Position numbers and translations under genes: made by a program. DNA of 61,320 nt, from positions 1 to 61,320 of the forward strand of contig JAZSRD010000101.1 in the NCBI GenBank assembly GCA_045538295.1, given 5' to 3'. Under the pieces are notes generated by a model that saw nothing but the letters and a program-made list of their open reading frames with translations, had not been told where the DNA came from and made no database searches. This DNA is from Eubacteriales bacterium (GTDB taxonomy: Bacteria; Bacillota; Clostridia; Oscillospirales; QAKW01). Shown here piece by piece: positions 1 to 7,160 of this stretch (its first letter is position 1; each line of letters opens with the position of its first letter).

Positions 1-3
1 TCC

Positions 4-288
4 TCATATATCCTCGACCCCCTCCAACCCTTGCATCACTTCCACCATTATGCGAGTGGCAAGGATAAATCCCGAACTGAATGCCTCACGCTCGGTGATG
101 CAAGACAGTTCACTTGTGCAGTCCTTGAACTTTTCAAAGGTTTCTTTCTGCTTTTCCGTAAGCCCTGCATTCAGTTCTTCTTCATTTTTGCATATCAGCT
201 TGACGAGTTTATCCACTCTCGTTCCTCGCTTGATGTACCTTTCGTGCGGACTGATGTTGCCATAGTATAAATCTTCAAGTGTTGTCAT
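4..288 (-). CDS. Small conserved hypothetical protein (MTTLEDLYYGNISPHE... type, as seen in Firmicute integrative/conjugative elements)
   Basis: The ORF is 4..339. An internal ATG at 288 is preceded by AAGGAGG (revcomp of 293-299). The N-terminal LEDLYYGNI-P-E motif is recalled from ICE accessory regions. Confidence 0.55.
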   Translation of the reverse strand: MTTLEDLYYGNISPHERYIKRGTRVDKLVKLICKNEEELNAGLTEKQKETFEKFKDCTSELSCITEREAFSSGFILATRIMVEVMQGLEGVEDI

Positions 289-410
289 GTGCGTTGCACC
301 TCCTTTTGCAACACAAACACATACCACAACACCTTTCATAAGTCCAGAGTTTTTTAAAACAACGCCTACAGCTCATCTTTTCAATTGGTAAGCCGTAAGC
401 GCTGTTTCTG

Positions 411-599
411 TTATAATATCAATTTCAATAAATCTTTCTCACACTCTTCGATTAGTATATCAACCTTTGGAGTTTTGCACATTCGTTCTGTATGCTTTTC
501 AAAAGTACAATAATCTTGCAGAATATCATGCATCCCTTTTGCCATTGCATAGATTGGGAAAACAGAATATGTATGCGGATTAATTGCTAACGTCTGCAA
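411..599 (-). CDS. Hypothetical 62-aa ORF, possibly a fourth gene of the unknown operon
   Basis: The ORF starts 21 nt downstream of the 322-aa gene on the same strand. It has no convincing RBS and no recognisable motifs. Confidence 0.25.
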   Translation of the reverse strand: MQTLAINPHTYSVFPIYAMAKGMHDILQDYCTFEKHTERMCKTPKVDILIEECEKDLLKLIL

Positions 600-620
600 G
601 TTATAACATTCCCGAATATC

Positions 621-1589
621 TTATAGACGTTTATCATAAGTGAAAAAATACGGAATTAAGACATCGCCCTTTTTTGCATCAAACATCATACTGGAATAAT
701 CCATAAAGCGAAGGTGCATTAAATCCCAAGTCATATTCTTGAGTTGTTTTAAAATATTTTTGTTACCTATATGTATTTTACCGAAAAAACCACAACTACT
801 TCCTTTAGAGAAATAGACTTTAGCTAAATTTATCTCCGGCTGCATAATTCTGCACAGCTTGGTGGTAATAAACTCAATAAATATTTTCAGTTTCTTTTCT
901 ACCGACTCTTTTTGATGCTCCAGTTGTATTTGGCTCATTTTAAGCAGAGAAAGGTATATCATCTTATATTGTTCTTTTATTTCAAAAAGGAATTCAAACT
1001 CTTCTTTCTCGTACATCGAAACGATTGCCCCAACTTGTTCCCAACATACCTTTTCATTGCCGGCATTCTCTCCTACCAGCATCTCATACGCAAAAAGTGT
1101 GCGTTTCACGCTTTCTTTTCGGCTAAGATCAAACATAAGGTTTTCAATCGTGTATGGTACATGATCAATTCCTAAGCCACCACCCCTAAGTAACTGGATG
1201 ACAGTCTCGAAACCGTCATAAGGAACATAGCCGTTTTTATAATATTTTTCGATATAACTTACTGTTTGCGTATCAAATGAAACACACCTAAAGATTCTTG
1301 CTCTGGAATCATGGCTGCGTAAACACCTTTTCAATATTCTATCATTAATAACGCTTACTCTTTCGTTGACAAATGGGGTAAATAATCGTTCTCTAATTCC
1401 AGATATCTCTTCTAACCCTGCATAAAGATCCATATTATCCAGCTCTTTTGTTGCAACAATAAATGTCCAATCTTTAAGCGCCCTTCTATTGAGCAAATAA
1501 AAATCAAACATATCAGCAAAAGAAGTTAGATGGCTCATTTGATTAGTCAAAAAGGCAATTAATTCTCTATGTCCAATTTCCGTTGTCAT
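621..1589 (-). CDS. Hypothetical protein C (322 aa) of the candidate defence operon, with possible PIN-like motifs
   Basis: This is a long ORF in AT-rich DNA. Its ATG directly abuts the stop of the upstream gene (1590). CVSFDTQTV and the C-terminal IPYFFTYDKRL resemble the first and last acidic motifs of PIN-type nucleases (weak). I see no P-loop or other known signature. Confidence 0.75.
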   Translation of the reverse strand: MTTEIGHRELIAFLTNQMSHLTSFADMFDFYLLNRRALKDWTFIVATKELDNMDLYAGLEEISGIRERLFTPFVNERVSVINDRILKRCLRSHDSRARIFRCVSFDTQTVSYIEKYYKNGYVPYDGFETVIQLLRGGGLGIDHVPYTIENLMFDLSRKESVKRTLFAYEMLVGENAGNEKVCWEQVGAIVSMYEKEEFEFLFEIKEQYKMIYLSLLKMSQIQLEHQKESVEKKLKIFIEFITTKLCRIMQPEINLAKVYFSKGSSCGFFGKIHIGNKNILKQLKNMTWDLMHLRFMDYSSMMFDAKKGDVLIPYFFTYDKRL

Positions 1590-2117
1590 TCATCCTCTTT
1601 TCCTGTTCCATTTTAAATCGTATAACCAGTTGTGATTTACACGAACTATATATTCATCCTCTTTCTTATATTGCTCGTAGAAGGATTCGCGAAAATAAGG
1701 TTTTTCACAATATGTACCTTTCTTTATAAATTCGCACAAAGGAAAAAAACTATGTTCGTGTTCTACGGCTTTTTCGTCTTCAAATTGAAGATACTCTTTC
1801 GTGTCACAAATCAACAAATGTCCCGACTGATTTTCTGAAAATTTTTCAGCCGAACGTAATTTCCCGGTAAAACTTTGTATAGGCCGATTGGAAAGTCTTC
1901 TGCATGATCGAAATAAAACAGGTCTTTCTTGTGGTAAATATATCTTTAAGACAATATCCCAAACATCATAGTAAGATTTGGTTTTTTCAGCTCCGTCACT
2001 CATAACCCAGTTGTATATAAATGAAATGGATTCCGGCGATAAAGGCGTATCTTCATCCATAAACGCAACAATATTATTGGCAATTTGTTCTTTCTTATTT
2101 TTGCTTATCCTATGCAT
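1590..2117 (-). CDS. Hypothetical protein B (175 aa) of the candidate defence operon
   Basis: The ORF lies 32 nt after the upstream gene and abuts the downstream gene. I recognise no family. Confidence 0.75.
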   Translation of the reverse strand: MHRISKNKKEQIANNIVAFMDEDTPLSPESISFIYNWVMSDGAEKTKSYYDVWDIVLKIYLPQERPVLFRSCRRLSNRPIQSFTGKLRSAEKFSENQSGHLLICDTKEYLQFEDEKAVEHEHSFFPLCEFIKKGTYCEKPYFRESFYEQYKKEDEYIVRVNHNWLYDLKWNRKRG

Positions 2118-2149
2118 AAACTACAACCTCTTTTTATCTCGCTTCATCG

Positions 2150-2758
2150 TTAACTCTTTGGCAATACTTCTTCAAGCATCATTTCACGATCTTGTTTTGG
2201 AAGGCTGTTTATATACTTGTCCCAATCTAAAATAGAATAATTAAAGAAGGTGAACTTTTCCTTGTTATTTTTATAGTAATTCTCTGCTGACAAACATAGA
2301 ATCATACAAAGTCTTCTAACGCTTACTCTGTATTCTCGGTGCTCTACGCCATCATTATCTATTGTTAGCGTTCCTGCTTCGCCACCATATATTTTAAAAG
2401 GTTTTTCAGTTTCAATAACTATTTTAAAGTGTTCAATAGGACAATCTTTTTTATTGTGGCGTTGTTTATATTCGTCATTATCAAGATTAGGATTTCCTTG
2501 ATGAAACAGCGAACTTCTAAAATTATACACAATTTCTCCACTTAAATAGGGCATATCTGGACCGCCTTCAACAGACGGAGACTTTTCGTATTGACCTATA
2601 TACTCATCATACCAAAGTTTGTATCGACTTGTAGACCCTTTATCTGGATATTCAGCTTTGCCACATATATCAGGTAGGGTTAGTGCTAATGATAGCGCTG
2701 CAAAATATAAATTATAAGATAAAGCTACGTTTATCTCTTCAATAAGTTTTGTTATCAT
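2150..2758 (-). CDS. Hypothetical protein A (202 aa), a possible HEPN-like protein (Rx4H)
   Basis: AAGGAGG lies 8 nt upstream of the ATG. The motif NFRSSLFHQG (R-x4-H followed by a small residue) follows a helical N-terminus (LYFAALSLALTLPDICG), as in HEPN RNases. This is inference only. Confidence 0.75.
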   Translation of the reverse strand: MITKLIEEINVALSYNLYFAALSLALTLPDICGKAEYPDKGSTSRYKLWYDEYIGQYEKSPSVEGGPDMPYLSGEIVYNFRSSLFHQGNPNLDNDEYKQRHNKKDCPIEHFKIVIETEKPFKIYGGEAGTLTIDNDGVEHREYRVSVRRLCMILCLSAENYYKNNKEKFTFFNYSILDWDKYINSLPKQDREMMLEEVLPKS

Positions 2759-2861
2759 ATTGCAAACCTCCTTTGAATTTGTTCGCTGTGATTAAATAAA
2801 ACTTGACAATTCCTTTTCTCCAAGTTAACATACATCAAACCTATTAATGAGGAGGAAATTT

Positions 2862-2936
2862 ATGAAATTAATCAAAAAGGCTTTCATATTTTTTTGTTTT
2901 GTGTTATACTGTAAGAGAATCGAGGTGATATCGTGA
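2862..2936 (+). CDS. 24-codon upstream ORF (MKLIKKAFIFFCFVLYCKRIEVIS) translationally coupled to the Dam-family methyltransferase
   Basis: GAGGAGG lies 7 nt upstream of the ATG at 2862. Its TGA stop overlaps the GTG start at 2933 (GTGA). Confidence 0.3.
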   Translation: MKLIKKAFIFFCFVLYCKRIEVIS

Positions 2937-4051
2937 ATCCAATCATTAAATGGCCTGGTGGAAAATCAAGAGAAATTGATAAGATTGAACATCTTATTCC
3001 TGATTTCAAACGATATATTGAACCGTTTTTTGGCGGTGGTGCGCTGTTCTTTCATCTTGCGCCTAAGTCTGCTGCAATCAACGATATCTCCGAATCTTTA
3101 ATTCAATATTACAAACTGATCAAGAATCAAGATAAACAACTTTACGATCTTTTGATGTGCTACAATAACAGTTTTAATAATATAGTATCTGTATGTAGCA
3201 AAGAAACAAACGAATTATTACATATCTTTTTCAGATTAAAAGAAGGCACCATTCAAAAGGACGAGTTAAGTTCTACATTAGAAGCACTGATATCAAGTAT
3301 GTCAGATAAAATAAACTCCGGTTTCAGTGAGAAACTTCTTTTAGATAAAGATGACTTTGATTCTTTCCTTCATCAAATGGTTGAAGACAAATTTGTTAGA
3401 ACGGTTGCTAACTACAATAAAAAACCATTTACAACCGAAGATTTATGTGAGAACTTGATTACCGGATTTACAAGCGGATATTATATGTATTTCCGCAAAA
3501 TCTTTAATGATATTAGTCTCGGTAGAATTACTGATCAATCTGTTCAATATCAAGCTGCGAACTTCTATTTCATCAGAGAATATTGTTACGGCTCTATGTT
3601 CCGCTATAATTCCAAAGGTGAATTTAACATACCATATGGCGGCATGTCATACAACAGAAAAGACATGAAAGCAAAAATCGATAACATGTTCAATAGAGAA
3701 ATTGATCAGTTATTTGCTAACACAGATATTCATTGCTCTGATTTTGAAGACTTCTTTAAAAATGTCAATCTTACAAGCAATGACTTCATGTTCTTAGATC
3801 CCCCTTATGATACAGACTTTTCCGATTATGAGGGCAAAGACTTTACAAAGTTTGATCAAGAACGTCTGGCGCATGCTTTAAAGAAAACACTTGCCAAATT
3901 TATCCTTGTTATCAAAAACACCGACTTTATCAACGGCTTATATGAGAAAGATTTCAATATTCTAAGTTTTGATAAACAATATACTTACAATGTTAGAAGT
4001 CGAAATGATAGAGACGTCGAACACCTAATTATTACAAACCTCTCGGTTTAA
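2933..4051 (+). CDS. Dam-family (D12 class, alpha-type) N6-adenine DNA methyltransferase with an enlarged target-recognition region
   Basis: The N-terminus is IIKWPGGKS. Motif I is EPFFGGGALF, followed by FRYNSKGEFNIPYGG, and motif IV is FLDPPYD. It has a GTG start with a GAGGTG RBS. Confidence 0.9.
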   Translation: MNPIIKWPGGKSREIDKIEHLIPDFKRYIEPFFGGGALFFHLAPKSAAINDISESLIQYYKLIKNQDKQLYDLLMCYNNSFNNIVSVCSKETNELLHIFFRLKEGTIQKDELSSTLEALISSMSDKINSGFSEKLLLDKDDFDSFLHQMVEDKFVRTVANYNKKPFTTEDLCENLITGFTSGYYMYFRKIFNDISLGRITDQSVQYQAANFYFIREYCYGSMFRYNSKGEFNIPYGGMSYNRKDMKAKIDNMFNREIDQLFANTDIHCSDFEDFFKNVNLTSNDFMFLDPPYDTDFSDYEGKDFTKFDQERLAHALKKTLAKFILVIKNTDFINGLYEKDFNILSFDKQYTYNVRSRNDRDVEHLIITNLSV

Positions 4052-4063
4052 TACCGAGAGGTT
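4037..4063. terminator. Bidirectional hairpin between convergent genes
   Basis: The stem is aacctctcggt / accgagaggtt (11 bp) with loop ttaat, followed by aaattttta. Confidence 0.6.
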
Positions 4064-4069
4064 AAATTT

Positions 4070-4324
4070 TTATCGCGATTTAAACACGCAATTCTCATAG
4101 GATATCAAGTTTTTAGGGAAATTTCTATGACAATTCAAATTTCTACAACGTTGCTCATACATTGCTTCTCCGGGTCGTGTTGTAGAAGGACTAAGGTCAT
4201 AGTCCGAGAGATCAAAAGCCAAAGGAACCCGTCTTTTAAATTCTGTTAACGTGATTTCTCCTTCAATTTCCAATATAGTCTTTAAGAACTCAATTAAATT
4301 TGCTTCAGTTATTTCTCTTTTCAC
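4070..4324 (-). CDS. Hypothetical 84-aa protein, last gene of the R-M operon
   Basis: The ORF starts 15 nt after the upstream nuclease gene. It has no firm family. There is a loose resemblance to small winged-helix N-terminal domains of restriction proteins. Confidence 0.55.
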   Translation of the reverse strand: MKREITEANLIEFLKTILEIEGEITLTEFKRRVPLAFDLSDYDLSPSTTRPGEAMYEQRCRNLNCHRNFPKNLISYENCVFKSR

Positions 4325-4339
4325 TTCTGTTGCCTCCCT

Positions 4340-5242
4340 TTATAGATTTTGTAGGCTTTCTTCTAAACCGGTTGCTTGAAAAGCATTTGCATAAACTGAA
4401 ATAAAGTCATCATATGTAAATTTATCGTGAGGAATAATTTTATCCCAGAATGTGCGGTTGTTACAAATTGTATTGTCACCAAGGATTTCTTCCAAATCGC
4501 TTTTGACCGCAGCAGAACACTCCCCATAACAAGTTGCGAAATAAGCAGAACAATTTGTTAAGAAACTGAACAAACCGGAAAGCCTTTTCACTTCTTCGGC
4601 ATTGCTTTCAGAATTTTTTGTATCAAGATTACCGCCCATTTTTATTTCGAAAGCATTTGCTCCGTCTAATGTTCCATCTGCGCAATCGAAGAACAGCAAA
4701 TCAACAGGAAGTTTCTTCCCGTGCACCTTGTTGTTTAGTAAATTGTTCATTGCATCGTTAGCAATGCCATAAAACTGATATCTTTCTATATGTAAAGATG
4801 TAGATCTTGCCTTGATTTTTAAACTTCTTTTTATATCTCTTTCAGATGAGTGTGTATCTACATAAATGTATTGCCTATAAGGATTAAATCCTTTGTTCTG
4901 CTCTTCGACAGGCAAATCACAACTAACACTATATAGTACACATTCAATGTTTCTCGCCGCACGATCTGTGATATTGATCTCAACGATATTAGGAACATGT
5001 TCGGTTTTGTACCTCATTCGTGCAATAAAGAAAATTATTCGTTGTAGCCTATTGCCTAATTGTGAGTCAACGCTCCGTCCTAATGCCATATATTTTTTTA
5101 TGTTAGTATCATCGAAGATTAAAAACGGATTGTTTTCTCTGTTGGACATATTGTCTTGAAAATTGGCAACAACATTCTGTGCTAAACCATTTAATTCGCT
5201 TAGCATTTTATTGTAGAGCAAATCCTTTGTTATTTCAGTCAT
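4340..5242 (-). CDS. Type II restriction endonuclease-like protein, paralogue 2 (PD-ExK)
   Basis: It carries PVDLLFFD...EIKMGGNLDTKNSESN, and CSAYFATCY and FWDKIIP are shared with paralogue 1. The ATG at 5242 overlaps the methyltransferase stop (ATGACTGA). Confidence 0.75.
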   Translation of the reverse strand: MTEITKDLLYNKMLSELNGLAQNVVANFQDNMSNRENNPFLIFDDTNIKKYMALGRSVDSQLGNRLQRIIFFIARMRYKTEHVPNIVEINITDRAARNIECVLYSVSCDLPVEEQNKGFNPYRQYIYVDTHSSERDIKRSLKIKARSTSLHIERYQFYGIANDAMNNLLNNKVHGKKLPVDLLFFDCADGTLDGANAFEIKMGGNLDTKNSESNAEEVKRLSGLFSFLTNCSAYFATCYGECSAAVKSDLEEILGDNTICNNRTFWDKIIPHDKFTYDDFISVYANAFQATGLEESLQNL

Positions 5243-5972
5243 TTTTATTTTCCACTCCATCTATTCTCTTTACAGCTGCTTTGAAATAGTTTTTTTCAAT
5301 TTCTATTCCGATATATTTACGTCCACTTTTTAATGCTGCCACACCTGCAGATCCAACGCCCATAAACGGATCGAATACGACGTCGCCCTCATTAGAAGCG
5401 ATATTGATAATATGTTCGAGAAGTGCAACAGGCTTCTGAGCAGGATGCTTAGGATTGGATAGACGCTCTGGACGCATACATATAGGACTTTGAAAGAAGT
5501 TATGCATTTCGTTTTGAGTTGTAAAATTCCATTTGTGACCTTTGTTCCACATACACGCTATCATTTCGCAACTATTTAAAAATCCATTTTTGAATATCTT
5601 CGGTGCAGGATTAGTCTTGTGCCATACGAAAAATTGAAATGTATCAAACTCACTATCAAAAGCTGCGTGCCATTTTCCTATTAGATTGTAACTTGTAAAT
5701 ACGAAAATATTGCCGTCCGGCTTTAGTATCCTTTTAAAATCATCCAACATAGCAAAAGGATCAATTTCTTTAAGATCCCATTTTCCCAAGTCGTTATTAA
5801 GAGCACTTCGGCCTGGCAAATCAATGTTACCTGTAGAATATTGCGCAATGTTATACGGAGGATCAGTTAAAATAAGATCAATGCTATTGTCCGGAATTTG
5901 ACTCAAATAATTGAGACAATCTCCGTTGACAAGAGTGTATTTCTTTGATTTAATTTTTTCAACCTTATACAT
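5235..5972 (-). CDS. Beta-class N6-adenine/N4-cytosine DNA methyltransferase (DPPY before FxGxG)
   Basis: It carries LILTDPPYNI followed by the C-terminal VFDPFMGVGSAGVAAL..GRKYIGIEI. Confidence 0.9.
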   Translation of the reverse strand: MYKVEKIKSKKYTLVNGDCLNYLSQIPDNSIDLILTDPPYNIAQYSTGNIDLPGRSALNNDLGKWDLKEIDPFAMLDDFKRILKPDGNIFVFTSYNLIGKWHAAFDSEFDTFQFFVWHKTNPAPKIFKNGFLNSCEMIACMWNKGHKWNFTTQNEMHNFFQSPICMRPERLSNPKHPAQKPVALLEHIINIASNEGDVVFDPFMGVGSAGVAALKSGRKYIGIEIEKNYFKAAVKRIDGVENKND

Positions 5973-5973
5973 A

Positions 5974-6837
5974 TCAACTATTAATACACTTGTTGATCAT
6001 TTCAACAATGCGGTCATTTAACCCGATTTCTTCCAAAGCCTCTTTGTAAATCTCCTCAAATTCTTCAAAAGAAATACCGTCAGGGAGAATTTTTGTCCAA
6101 AGATTTTTGCCAATTAAGAACATTTCGGGATATGCCAAATGCTTTTTAACAGCACCTTTCCAAGTGTTTCCTTCTCCGTCTTTGTTGTAAAGCGTAGCGA
6201 AATAGGCTTTGCAGTTTTCAATACCCATATCCACATAAATGGTAAGCAGTTTTTCAACATTTGAAGGTGCATTGGAACTATCAAGATCTCCACCAGCCTT
6301 AAGTTCCATCACATTCCATTCTGTTCCGTCAAAGAAAGCTAAATCTACTGGCTTTGAATAGATTTCGGTGGTGCGATACTTTTCAGAAAGAGGAAGAAGG
6401 TGTTCTTTGATACTGCTCTGGGTAACACCGCTTTCTACACGCAGTTTGCCCGCACCTCTTGCCTCATTGTTAGCTCTAAAAGCAGAAATTTCTCCGCGAA
6501 GATTACCATTATGTGTATCAACATCAGTAACAACAATCTGTCCTGATATCCTTGTTTCATCAATATTGTGCCGAAGGTTTCGAGGATTGACAATAGTGGG
6601 AACATTTTCCTCACCGAATTTAAGCCTTGCAATGCGCTTGGCGCAAGTTTCAATTGCAAAACCGCTCTTGGACTCAAAGCTACTGACAAAAACCATACTT
6701 GCTGTTATATTTTCATCCATCTGACTGAGAAGAAAATTATTTACTTTTCTTTTATAGTTAGCCGCAAAATCCTTTTCAATCAGATCGGTAAGTTTAGAAA
6801 ATTCCTCGAAAACAATCTGTTTAATTGTATTTCTCAT
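5974..6837 (-). CDS. Type II restriction endonuclease-like protein, paralogue 1 (PD-ExK)
   Basis: It carries PVDLAFFD...ELKAGGDLDSSNAPSN, CKAYFATLY and LWTKILP. GGAGG lies 9 nt upstream of the ATG at 6837 (the ORF track start at 6858 is less likely). Confidence 0.75.
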   Translation of the reverse strand: MRNTIKQIVFEEFSKLTDLIEKDFAANYKRKVNNFLLSQMDENITASMVFVSSFESKSGFAIETCAKRIARLKFGEENVPTIVNPRNLRHNIDETRISGQIVVTDVDTHNGNLRGEISAFRANNEARGAGKLRVESGVTQSSIKEHLLPLSEKYRTTEIYSKPVDLAFFDGTEWNVMELKAGGDLDSSNAPSNVEKLLTIYVDMGIENCKAYFATLYNKDGEGNTWKGAVKKHLAYPEMFLIGKNLWTKILPDGISFEEFEEIYKEALEEIGLNDRIVEMINKCINS

Positions 6838-6873
6838 TTTTATGTACCTCCAAAGCACAAAATCTCATATTAT

Positions 6874-6902
6874 ATTTTAACATATTTCGCTAATTCTCGC
6901 AA
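6874..6902 (-). promoter_or_regulatory. Putative sigma-A promoter of the R-M operon
   Basis: On the minus strand the sequence reads TTGCGA, 17 nt, then TAAAAT with an upstream TG (TGtTAAAAT). Confidence 0.4.
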
Positions 6903-6942
6903 TAGCAAGAAAAATAAATATTCATTTTCTTGTATGGAATAA

Positions 6943-6986
6943 GAAAAGAACTGCTCATGAGGATTTTCTCATGAACAGTTCTTTTT
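6943..6986. terminator. Long hairpin at the right edge of the AT-rich island
   Basis: The stem is gaactgctcatgag / ctcatgaacagttc (14 bp, one mismatch), extended by flanking A and T runs. Confidence 0.5.
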
Positions 6987-7160
6987 CATTTGCACTCGTC
7001 AATCGGCTTATTTCATAGGATATTCAAAACATCCTTATGAGAACTTGCCTTTCGGCAATATTTTTTCTTCCTTTTTTATTTTGTTGCGAAGGAATGCTGT
7101 TAAAAGTTCTTATTTTTTCTTGCCTTTTGCGGTTCGGACTTTTTTTACATCCCCTTTTGT

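Follow-up and report, generated by a model that had tools for sequence, protein, structure and literature searches.

How do three small genes for unannotated proteins come to stand together among restriction enzymes, and do they act as a single system? The question is raised by a 61,320-nucleotide stretch of an Eubacteriales genome (GenBank assembly GCA_045538295.1, contig JAZSRD010000101.1; in the following, the window), the minus strand of which carries at positions 411–2758 a compact cassette of three genes, here termed A, B and C in the order of their transcription. An earlier note made from the sequence alone had taken these genes, encoding a HEPN-like, an unknown and a PIN-like protein, as a candidate undescribed defence system. 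Our analysis instead favours, with a probability of roughly one half, a mobile cassette in which three candidate defence genes are independent of each other over one obligate three-part system. The arguments for this reading are the distribution of the genes, the predicted properties of their products and the contexts in which their homologues recur.

Distribution and mobility of the cassette

Co-occurrence was analysed by applying hmmsearch with the three family profiles to all fetched loci. The A-B-C trio was found only in the window, in four loci carrying the same island (L001–L004) and in one further locus (L022), and conservation of the gene order across genomes, which the earlier note had suggested to examine, is confined to these loci. 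The island of the window spans ca. 11 kb and shares 91% DNA identity with the copies in L001–L004 over window positions 4–6850, after which the similarity stops. Near this end of the shared island DNA, at about position 7000, the GC content jumps from 0.33–0.37 in bases 1–7000 to 0.41–0.54 (mostly 0.45–0.52) in the rest of the window. The flanks of the island copies differ and consist of an APH-like kinase gene and adhE in the window, of a CoA-disulfide reductase side in L001 and of two tyrosine recombinase genes in L002. The setting in an AT-rich mobile restriction-modification (R-M) and defence island, proposed already in the earlier note, is thus borne out both by the GC contrast and by the DNA comparison of the copies. 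The contig begins inside the island, at a DUF6809 gene (4–339). A DUF6809 gene also borders the unrelated island of L192, which contains a C homologue and Hachiman; this gene may be a marker of a mobile-element backbone common to both islands or of an integration hotspot.

In L022 the similarity to the window (77% at the DNA level) is confined to window positions 411–2757, which is exactly the cassette. The flanking genes of L022, coding for a ResIII-Eco57I enzyme upstream and for a sigma factor and a serpin downstream, belong to an island unrelated to that of the window. Because the similarity stops at the cassette boundaries amid different neighbours, we conclude that the cassette has moved as a unit at least once. 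A third lineage contains a protein of 254 aa (P0206, present on 4 contigs), in which residues 1–120 of B are fused by a deletion to residues 3–136 of C and which is truncated thereafter, thus representing a decayed B-C pair. Together with a nonsense codon in the window copy of C (see below), this protein hints at a repeated inactivation of the B-C module.

Outside this narrow clade the three genes go separate ways. A is found without its partners in more than 80 loci, and neither A nor C lies beside the more distant B homologues in any of about 90 loci (0 of about 90). C occurs without A or B at identities of 72% (L021), 63% (3′ of a type I R-M operon), 60%, 47% and 35–37%, as well as in Proteobacterial plasmids, the whole solo range extending from 72% down to 21% identity. 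As solo loci abound for each of the three genes, A, B and C are best described as independent modules joined in one narrow clade, and the view of an obligate three-gene system, which the earlier note implied, is not sustained.

Predicted properties of the three proteins

Compared with L001 and L022, to which the three proteins are 72–93% identical, A, B and C show ratios of nonsynonymous to synonymous substitution rates (dN/dS) of 0.05–0.11 (0.05–0.06 for A and 0.07–0.08 for B), indicating strong purifying selection. On this basis A, B and C are regarded as real genes and the nonsense mutation in C as recent. The earlier note considered the proteins as unplaceable in known families, and indeed no assignment for A, B or C was obtained from Pfam, NCBIfam, PADLOC or the PDB sequences. 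Pfam provided chance-level matches only, far under the gathering score, and a Pfam scan of every member of the alignments did not reveal an informative domain. In NCBIfam and PADLOC the three proteins gave no match at an expectation value (E) of ≤1; for PADLOC-DB v2.0.0, with the PDC and HEC models included, this applies also to the 62-aa open reading frame (ORF) following the third ORF. Searches of PDB chains with the sequences, the profiles and the alignments of A, B and C returned noise only. Membership of an already named defence system, as far as represented in PADLOC, was found for none of the components. The sequence motifs on which the earlier note was built, NFRSSLFHQG in A as well as CVSFDTQTV and IPYFFTYDKRL in C, were confirmed, and the homologues retain their key residues without or almost without exception.

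Protein B, which had been left as unknown in the earlier note, is very probably an ADP-ribosyltransferase (ART), as judged from a conserved triad, the strand topology of its predicted structure and the agreement between two fold libraries. In the alignment of 64 family members, F69-R70, C104-D105-T106, E153 and E155-Y156 are invariant, and D154 and the segment S82-F-T84-G85 nearly so (S82, T84 and G85 being at least 90% conserved). The order R, S and ExE is that of the catalytic triad of cholera-toxin-like ADP-ribosyltransferases. The AlphaFold 2 model of B, with a predicted local distance difference test score (pLDDT) of 90.2 and a predicted template modelling score (pTM) of 0.87, begins at the N-terminus with three helices, after which comes a beta-rich core. 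Strand 67–72 contains R70 and the next strand, 80–84, S82 and T84; E153 closes a helix and E155 opens strand 155–159. A Foldseek search of the PDB with this model listed cholera toxin A1, pertussis S1, Tpt1, iota Ia, C3, ExoS and C3larvin at the top (E 0.29–7), five of the six best matches adopting the ART fold. In BFVD the best matches reached probabilities of 0.94–0.98 at E-values of 4e-3 to 1e-2 and included a Pectobacterium phage “Putative ADP-ribosylase” and an “ADP ribosyltransferase domain-containing protein”. No Foldseek match of B passes an E-value of 1e-3, and the ART call is founded on the concordance of the matches combined with the triad. In hhalign comparisons with the single sequences of T4 ModA and ModB the motifs are in register, in the case of ModB with LFR70 on LYR and SFT on SFT (P 0.018), at a level which is not statistically significant. 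Pfam, NCBIfam, PADLOC, PHROG and the PDB sequences contain no match for B or its 64-member alignment; since no described sequence family matches, B would constitute a new sequence family within the ART fold.

The more distant homologues of B (35–68% identity) in about 90 loci form 51 further clusters (53 in all), and their neighbours fall into 158 clusters. In L033-35/L037 the B gene immediately precedes hsdR, and in L036, L039, L042 and L046 it is placed alongside hsdR or just past its 3′ end. Other neighbours of B encode an N6/N4 methylase, a coupling protein of a type IV secretion system (T4SS), membrane proteins and TonB receptors. On the Sphingobacterium resistance plasmid pWB1 a solo B gene adjoins tet(X2) and mobC. 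The identification of B as an Arr-type antibiotic ART, considered on account of this tet(X2) adjacency, was rejected in view of the R-S-E triad and of contexts which are overwhelmingly of the R-M or mobile-element type. In L018–L020 a B homologue (35% identity) belongs to the cargo of a small integrative islet equipped with an integrase, helix-turn-helix genes and a D5_N primase; the remaining cargo comprises a 91-aa ORF, a PLDc_2 nuclease adjoining the B homologue and a resolvase, and in L019 also GmrSD. The islet resembles a satellite-type defence carrier.

Gene C is interrupted in the window. Its 392 codons can be translated in one frame with a single internal TAA, at the position of which the 92%-related locus L001 has CAA, encoding a 392-aa protein. 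All other members of the 90% cluster of the window C are likewise 392 aa long, and intact relatives comprise ~365–400 aa. The end in ...TYDKRL, taken in the earlier note as the terminus of the third protein, is accordingly set by a premature stop codon and is not the natural C-terminus, and its “possible 62-aa fourth ORF” shares the frame of the 322-aa ORF and is the tail of gene C. The TAA removes the last 70 residues of C, among them the invariant R369 and the near-invariant E384. The window copy is probably truncated or a recent pseudogene, and inactive.

In the family of C, residues F73, D106, D142, E149-N150, E252, W288-D289, R294, D319 and R369 are invariant even when homologues of only 20–21% identity, which originate from Legionella, Bacillus cereus and Ralstonia plasmids, are included. 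D106 within an hhhD[TS] motif, E149, D289 and [ST]-x-D319 follow each other in the order known from PIN domains; T107 is nearly invariant and T317 is replaced by Ser only. The AlphaFold 2 model was calculated for the full-length homologue P0122, 94% identical to the window C, and reached a pLDDT of 91.2 and a pTM of 0.91. In this model D106 is found at the end of a strand followed by a helix, and [ST]xD319 after a strand, as in PIN domains. A Foldseek search of the PDB gave a best E-value of 0.54 and template modelling (TM) scores of ≤0.17, with no PIN protein among the best 50 of 177 matches, although a PIN core split by a ~170-residue helical insertion could escape Foldseek. If a PIN-like core exists in C, it is split by such an insertion. 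Pfam contains no PIN-family match for C, and the hhalign comparison with VapC, which places SFDTQ on MLDTN and thereby motif I in register, is not significant (P 0.17). From the PIN-type nuclease postulated in the earlier note, the conservation of the acidic motifs in PIN order has thus been retained, whereas a PIN fold and a profile match were not obtained. C was also considered as an ADP-ribosylhydrolase or macro-type antidote to B; this was rejected, as neither a fold nor a profile match was found.

The neighbourhoods of C contain type I R-M, Hachiman, Mrr, PLD-helicase, reverse transcriptase-protease and retron-like genes. Directly adjoining are B in the present clade, a Macro-domain protein in L024, a TIR protein in Ralstonia (not in the Pantoea or Enterobacter plasmids examined) and NUDIX genes, which are placed upstream of C in L192 and downstream in L025 and whose products are 48% identical to each other. 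The recurrence of NAD+/ADP-ribose enzymes beside C is suggestive and not universal. It serves as a lead only, because the model best matched by the NUDIX proteins is the MutT-like NUDIX_4. Short peptide-deformylase-like ORFs (121–137 aa, 61% mutually identical) adjoin C in L023 (7509–7922) and L192 (7169–7534), two otherwise different defence islands.

Protein A provides the sole family match of the trio, PHROG 18591 (phrog_18591, function not assigned), with an E-value of 1.7e-25. It has 926 matches in the 90%-clustered database, and the family profile retrieves 2,600 clusters at 50% identity. Conservation was measured over 100 representatives sharing ≤50% identity pairwise. Among these D30, C32 and H86 are invariant and R81 is conserved to at least 90%, constituting an R-x4-H motif within the family consensus LTLPDIC...LR[CNS]S[LF][LF]H[QE]G. 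Matches to HEPN models are all sub-threshold; they concern HEPN_Apea in 2 of the 100 members (0.026) and Cas13a (0.0015) and CARF_HEPN (0.004) in single members of the family. A PADLOC scan of the 100 representatives produced noise-level matches only. Alignment of the A family with the pEK499 “HEPN family nuclease” by hhalign puts RSSLFH on RNSVAH (P 0.043, probability 1.2%), is limited to the R-x4-H stretch and does not reach statistical significance. A HEPN template profile derived from pEK499_p136 homologues was dropped, the plasmid homologues all being at least 78% identical. Ten longer A-family proteins, regarded as possible fusions, gave nothing informative in Pfam except for one DUF2971 fusion. 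The earlier proposal of a HEPN RNase is therefore upheld with respect to the R-x4-H motif, which is conserved family-wide, and not with respect to a HEPN model matched at threshold. The weak but consistent indications beyond the motif make a HEPN-type protein plausible.

A homologue of A with 51% identity is present in more than 2,000 contigs, where it stands solo in the arrangement hsdM-RhuM-A-hsdS-hsdS′-(236 aa)-hsdR of a Mob_Pre/TnpV element. This type I R-M element (L005–L012) thus combines RhuM and the A homologue with two hsdS genes, which are possibly phase-variable, and the conserved 236-aa protein encoded between hsdS and hsdR has no Pfam match. Further relatives of A are located between hsdM and hsdR in IMG/VR contigs. 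A relatives are carried by 72 viral contigs and are also found in phage genomes; in the Erysipelothrix phage SE-1 the gene is positioned 3′ of the lysis cassette, a prophage moron-type site, and in the Acinetobacter phage TCUAN1 it adjoins the integrase. In L183 the A homologue is flanked by an NgoFVII/PLD-type nuclease and an integrase, the latter followed by a CBASS operon (CD-NTase and Cap15). The nuclease gene of L183 is preceded by QueC-like and TatD genes, an arrangement reminiscent of Qat.

Gene organisation and neighbouring restriction-modification genes

The coordinates and sizes of the ORFs, the gaps of 32 and 0 nt, the ribosome-binding site and the 174-bp divergent spacer all proved to be as first described; the features are compiled in Table 1. 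The spacing between A and B is 32 nt, and the stop codon of B directly abuts the ATG of C, while the B/C junction in relatives is a 4-nt overlap. A promoter scan of 2759–2932 yielded consensus-level promoter-like matches only, with no excess over chance expectation.

Table 1. Features of the A-B-C cassette and of the adjoining divergent region (window coordinates).
Feature	Position	Strand	Description
Gene A	2150–2758	minus	202-aa ORF; predicted HEPN-like RNase of a very large unannotated family
Gene B	1590–2117	minus	175-aa ORF; predicted R-S-ExE mono-ADP-ribosyltransferase core
Gene C	411–1589	minus	one 392-codon frame, interrupted in this genome
ORF pieces of gene C	621–1589 and 411–599	minus	322 aa and 62 aa
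Premature in-frame TAA in gene C	621–623	minus	CAA (Gln323) in relatives
Shine-Dalgarno sequence AAAGGAGG of gene A	2767–2774	minus	8 nt before the ATG of A, read from the sequence
Divergent intergenic region between A and the Dam-family methyltransferase gene	2759–2932		174 bp; presumed site of the cassette promoter
Dam-family methyltransferase	2933–4051	plus	Dam family, D12 class

Beyond the cassette, a TdeIII/HinfI-like nuclease (5974–6858) is paired with an N6/N4 methylase (5235–5972). A 306-aa nuclease (4340–5260) is a paralogue of this TdeIII/HinfI-like enzyme (25% identity, E 1e-19) and is separated from the Dam-family methylase by an 84-aa ORF (4070–4324). The two adjacent restriction nucleases recognised in the earlier note are hence present and can be specified as paralogous TdeIII/HinfI-like enzymes, and the region 2933–6858 appears to harbour two adjacent type II R-M pairs, the second of which would consist of the 306-aa nuclease with the 84-aa ORF and the Dam-family methylase. 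The Dam methyltransferase had been suggested as a self-protection partner of the cassette. It is, however, absent from L022 and from all solo contexts of the three genes, and it adjoins the TdeIII-like nuclease paralogue; most likely, it belongs to one of the type II R-M pairs and not to the cassette.

Proposed function and relation to known systems

In the scenario which we favour, the minus strand of 411–2758 would form a co-transcribed accessory cassette; the R-M island around it is mobile and AT-rich and belongs to a gut genome of the Clostridia/Oscillospiraceae type. The cassette would join three modules which are separate elsewhere and each of which recurs in defence islands, R-M operons and prophages or mobile elements. 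A might act as a stand-alone HEPN-like RNase of the abortive-infection type by means of R81 and H86. B is envisaged as a small NAD+-dependent mono-ADP-ribosyltransferase of the R-S-ExE (cholera-toxin or T4 Mod-like) type, the target of which may be a protein arginine or a nucleic acid, either of the invader or of the host translation or transcription machinery. C would be a metal-dependent nuclease-like enzyme, the acidic residues of which follow each other as in PIN domains but are carried by an unrecognised scaffold. Most likely, the three would provide a second-line defence alongside restriction, as for PrrC and further HEPN genes embedded in R-M operons, with effectors which act once restriction fails or is inhibited. 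In the present clade, translationally coupled B and C may act as a pair, to which A would be an add-on.

Several points weigh against this interpretation. The defence role of all three families is deduced from guilt by association. The HEPN profile matches of A all stay below threshold, the E-values of the ART-fold matches of B (4e-3 to 0.3) are above the usual cut-off of 1e-3, and C has no structural neighbour, such that the term nuclease is here derived from its acidic motifs. Moreover, B is often found beside housekeeping genes (TonB receptors), alone on a resistance plasmid or on conjugative elements, and structurally it comes closest to phage ARTs, all of which fits an offensive or anti-defence role equally. 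Finally, the exact cassette boundaries were kept upon the move to a second island, and the three genes may cooperate to a greater extent than assumed here.

A rather unlikely alternative is that the genes serve the mobile element itself in host takeover or anti-defence, for instance by an AcrIF11-like or T4 Alt/ModA/ModB-like ART. The closest structural matches of B come from phages and include annotated ADP-ribosylases, the motifs of B are in register with those of T4 ModB, and B genes have mobC as a neighbour on a resistance plasmid, adjoin a T4SS coupling protein gene and form part of an islet with primase and integrase. The A homologues in phage genomes and in 72 viral contigs point in the same direction, and AcrIF11 demonstrates that small solo mobile-element ARTs can be anti-defence proteins (PMC12421852). 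However, A and B are inserted into type I R-M operons, located on chromosomes or on mobile elements, and C lies amid defence genes, a position typical for defence functions (bioRxiv 10.1101/2024.01.29.577857). The A genes of temperate phages reside at moron sites or on the lysogeny side and not in early-gene clusters, and the viral contigs scanned for C contain no relative of this protein.

One obligate three-component defence system, in which A, B and C would operate e.g. as sensor, modifier and effector, is considered as quite unlikely. It would account for the tight packing (the 32-nt gap, and the stop/start abutment here or the 4-nt overlap in relatives), for the same gene order in two unrelated islands with DNA similarity limited to the cassette and for the B-C adjacency preserved in a third lineage as the decayed fusion P0206. 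It conflicts with the about 90 loci of distant B homologues devoid of A and C, with C standing alone already in L021 (72% identity) and in ten or more further contexts, with the many contexts of solo A and with family sizes which differ ~thirty-fold (2,600 clusters for A compared to 87 matches each for B and C).

Of similarly low probability is a two-gene ADP-ribosylation immune module of B and C, in which B would activate or signal to C as a metal-dependent nuclease of a new fold. An effector or sensor C wired to NAD+/ADP-ribose chemistry would explain why Macro, NUDIX and TIR proteins replace B beside other C homologues. A toxin-antitoxin (TA) or addiction module stabilising the island, with B or A as toxin and a neighbour as cognate antidote, is less probable still. 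In its favour, ARTs and HEPN RNases are frequent TA toxins (DarT, ParT and HepT; see also PMC3710099), C is translationally coupled to B, and the repeated decay of C and B-C (nonsense codon, P0206) would fit the counter-selection of a toxic module. Against it, each gene often lacks a conserved neighbour able to serve as antitoxin, and the truncation of C beside an intact B under purifying selection is hard to square with C as antidote of B.

If the predictions made for the cassette of independent modules hold, its genes represent three candidate defence families absent from Pfam, NCBIfam and PADLOC. The A family is spread widely over gut bacteria, prophages and type I R-M operons; with B, a minimal ART would join the short list of ART-based immune and counter-immune enzymes; and C combines a confident predicted structure without a solved relative with its recurrence beside NAD+/ADP-ribose enzymes. 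The locus would further exemplify that R-M operons and islands gather second-line effectors, the modules of which are shuffled independently. As C is broken in the window copy, cloning calls for an intact relative or for a repaired stop codon.

Many HEPN families are embedded in R-M operons, such as PrrC/RloC with RhuM-like genes, ApeA and EC042_2821 (Anantharaman et al. 2013, PMC3710099). A shares with PrrC/RloC and other R-M-embedded HEPN proteins the position of an R-x4-6-H gene in a type I R-M operon, often near RhuM, and the proposed logic of a latent RNase backing up restriction. In contrast to PrrC/RloC, A comprises only ~200 aa without an ABC-ATPase domain and also occurs in prophages and outside R-M operons. 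One HEPN family of R-M operons is found together with ART and Macro genes (PMC3710099). The neighbourhood theme of the pEK499_p136-like HEPN family is shared by A next to B in the present cassette and by the Macro-domain protein next to C in L024; A aligns with this family at the R-x4-H stretch only and is not assigned to it.

The predicted triad of B, in the order R, S-x-T and E-x-E, corresponds to that of the A subunits of cholera and pertussis toxin and of T4 ModA/ModB-like ARTs. B differs from these R-S-E enzymes by the lack of a sequence match, by a very short R-to-S spacing of 12 residues and by an N-terminal domain of three helices peculiar to it; encoded on bacterial chromosomes or mobile elements, it is neither a secreted toxin nor a phage early protein. 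ART-based defence is known from CmdTAC and DarTG (PMC11618068, PMC9967889) and ART-based anti-defence from AcrIF11 (PMC12421852). The likeness of B to CmdTAC and DarTG consists in a defence-associated ART as the would-be effector. B has a PADLOC match to neither system and is usually solo; unlike CmdTAC, it is not accompanied by a SecB-like chaperone or an antitoxin, and unlike DarTG, it has neither the DarT (DUF4433) fold family nor a macrodomain antitoxin. With AcrIF11 B shares the character of a small solo mobile-element ART, which is a functional analogy only; AcrIF11 is not among the structural or sequence matches of B, and B is embedded in R-M operons.

C shares the order of acidic residues with PIN nucleases, as VapC and the PIN-like HEC-09 (Payne et al. 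2024), and is distinguished from them by the missing PIN fold and Pfam PIN match and by the ~170-residue helical insertion which would split its putative core. Genes embedded in type I R-M or defence operons have often turned out experimentally to be defence genes, and 145 candidates of this kind were added to PADLOC (Payne et al., bioRxiv 10.1101/2024.01.29.577857). The PDC/HEC “guilt-by-embedding” candidates, which A, B and C resemble, are genes of uncharacterised function within type I R-M, BREX or DISARM operons for which a defence role is predicted; A, B and C match no PADLOC v2.0.0 model. Altogether, the locus conforms to a known kind, in which second-line effectors accompany R-M systems, and represents it by three undescribed families, one of them of unrecognised fold.

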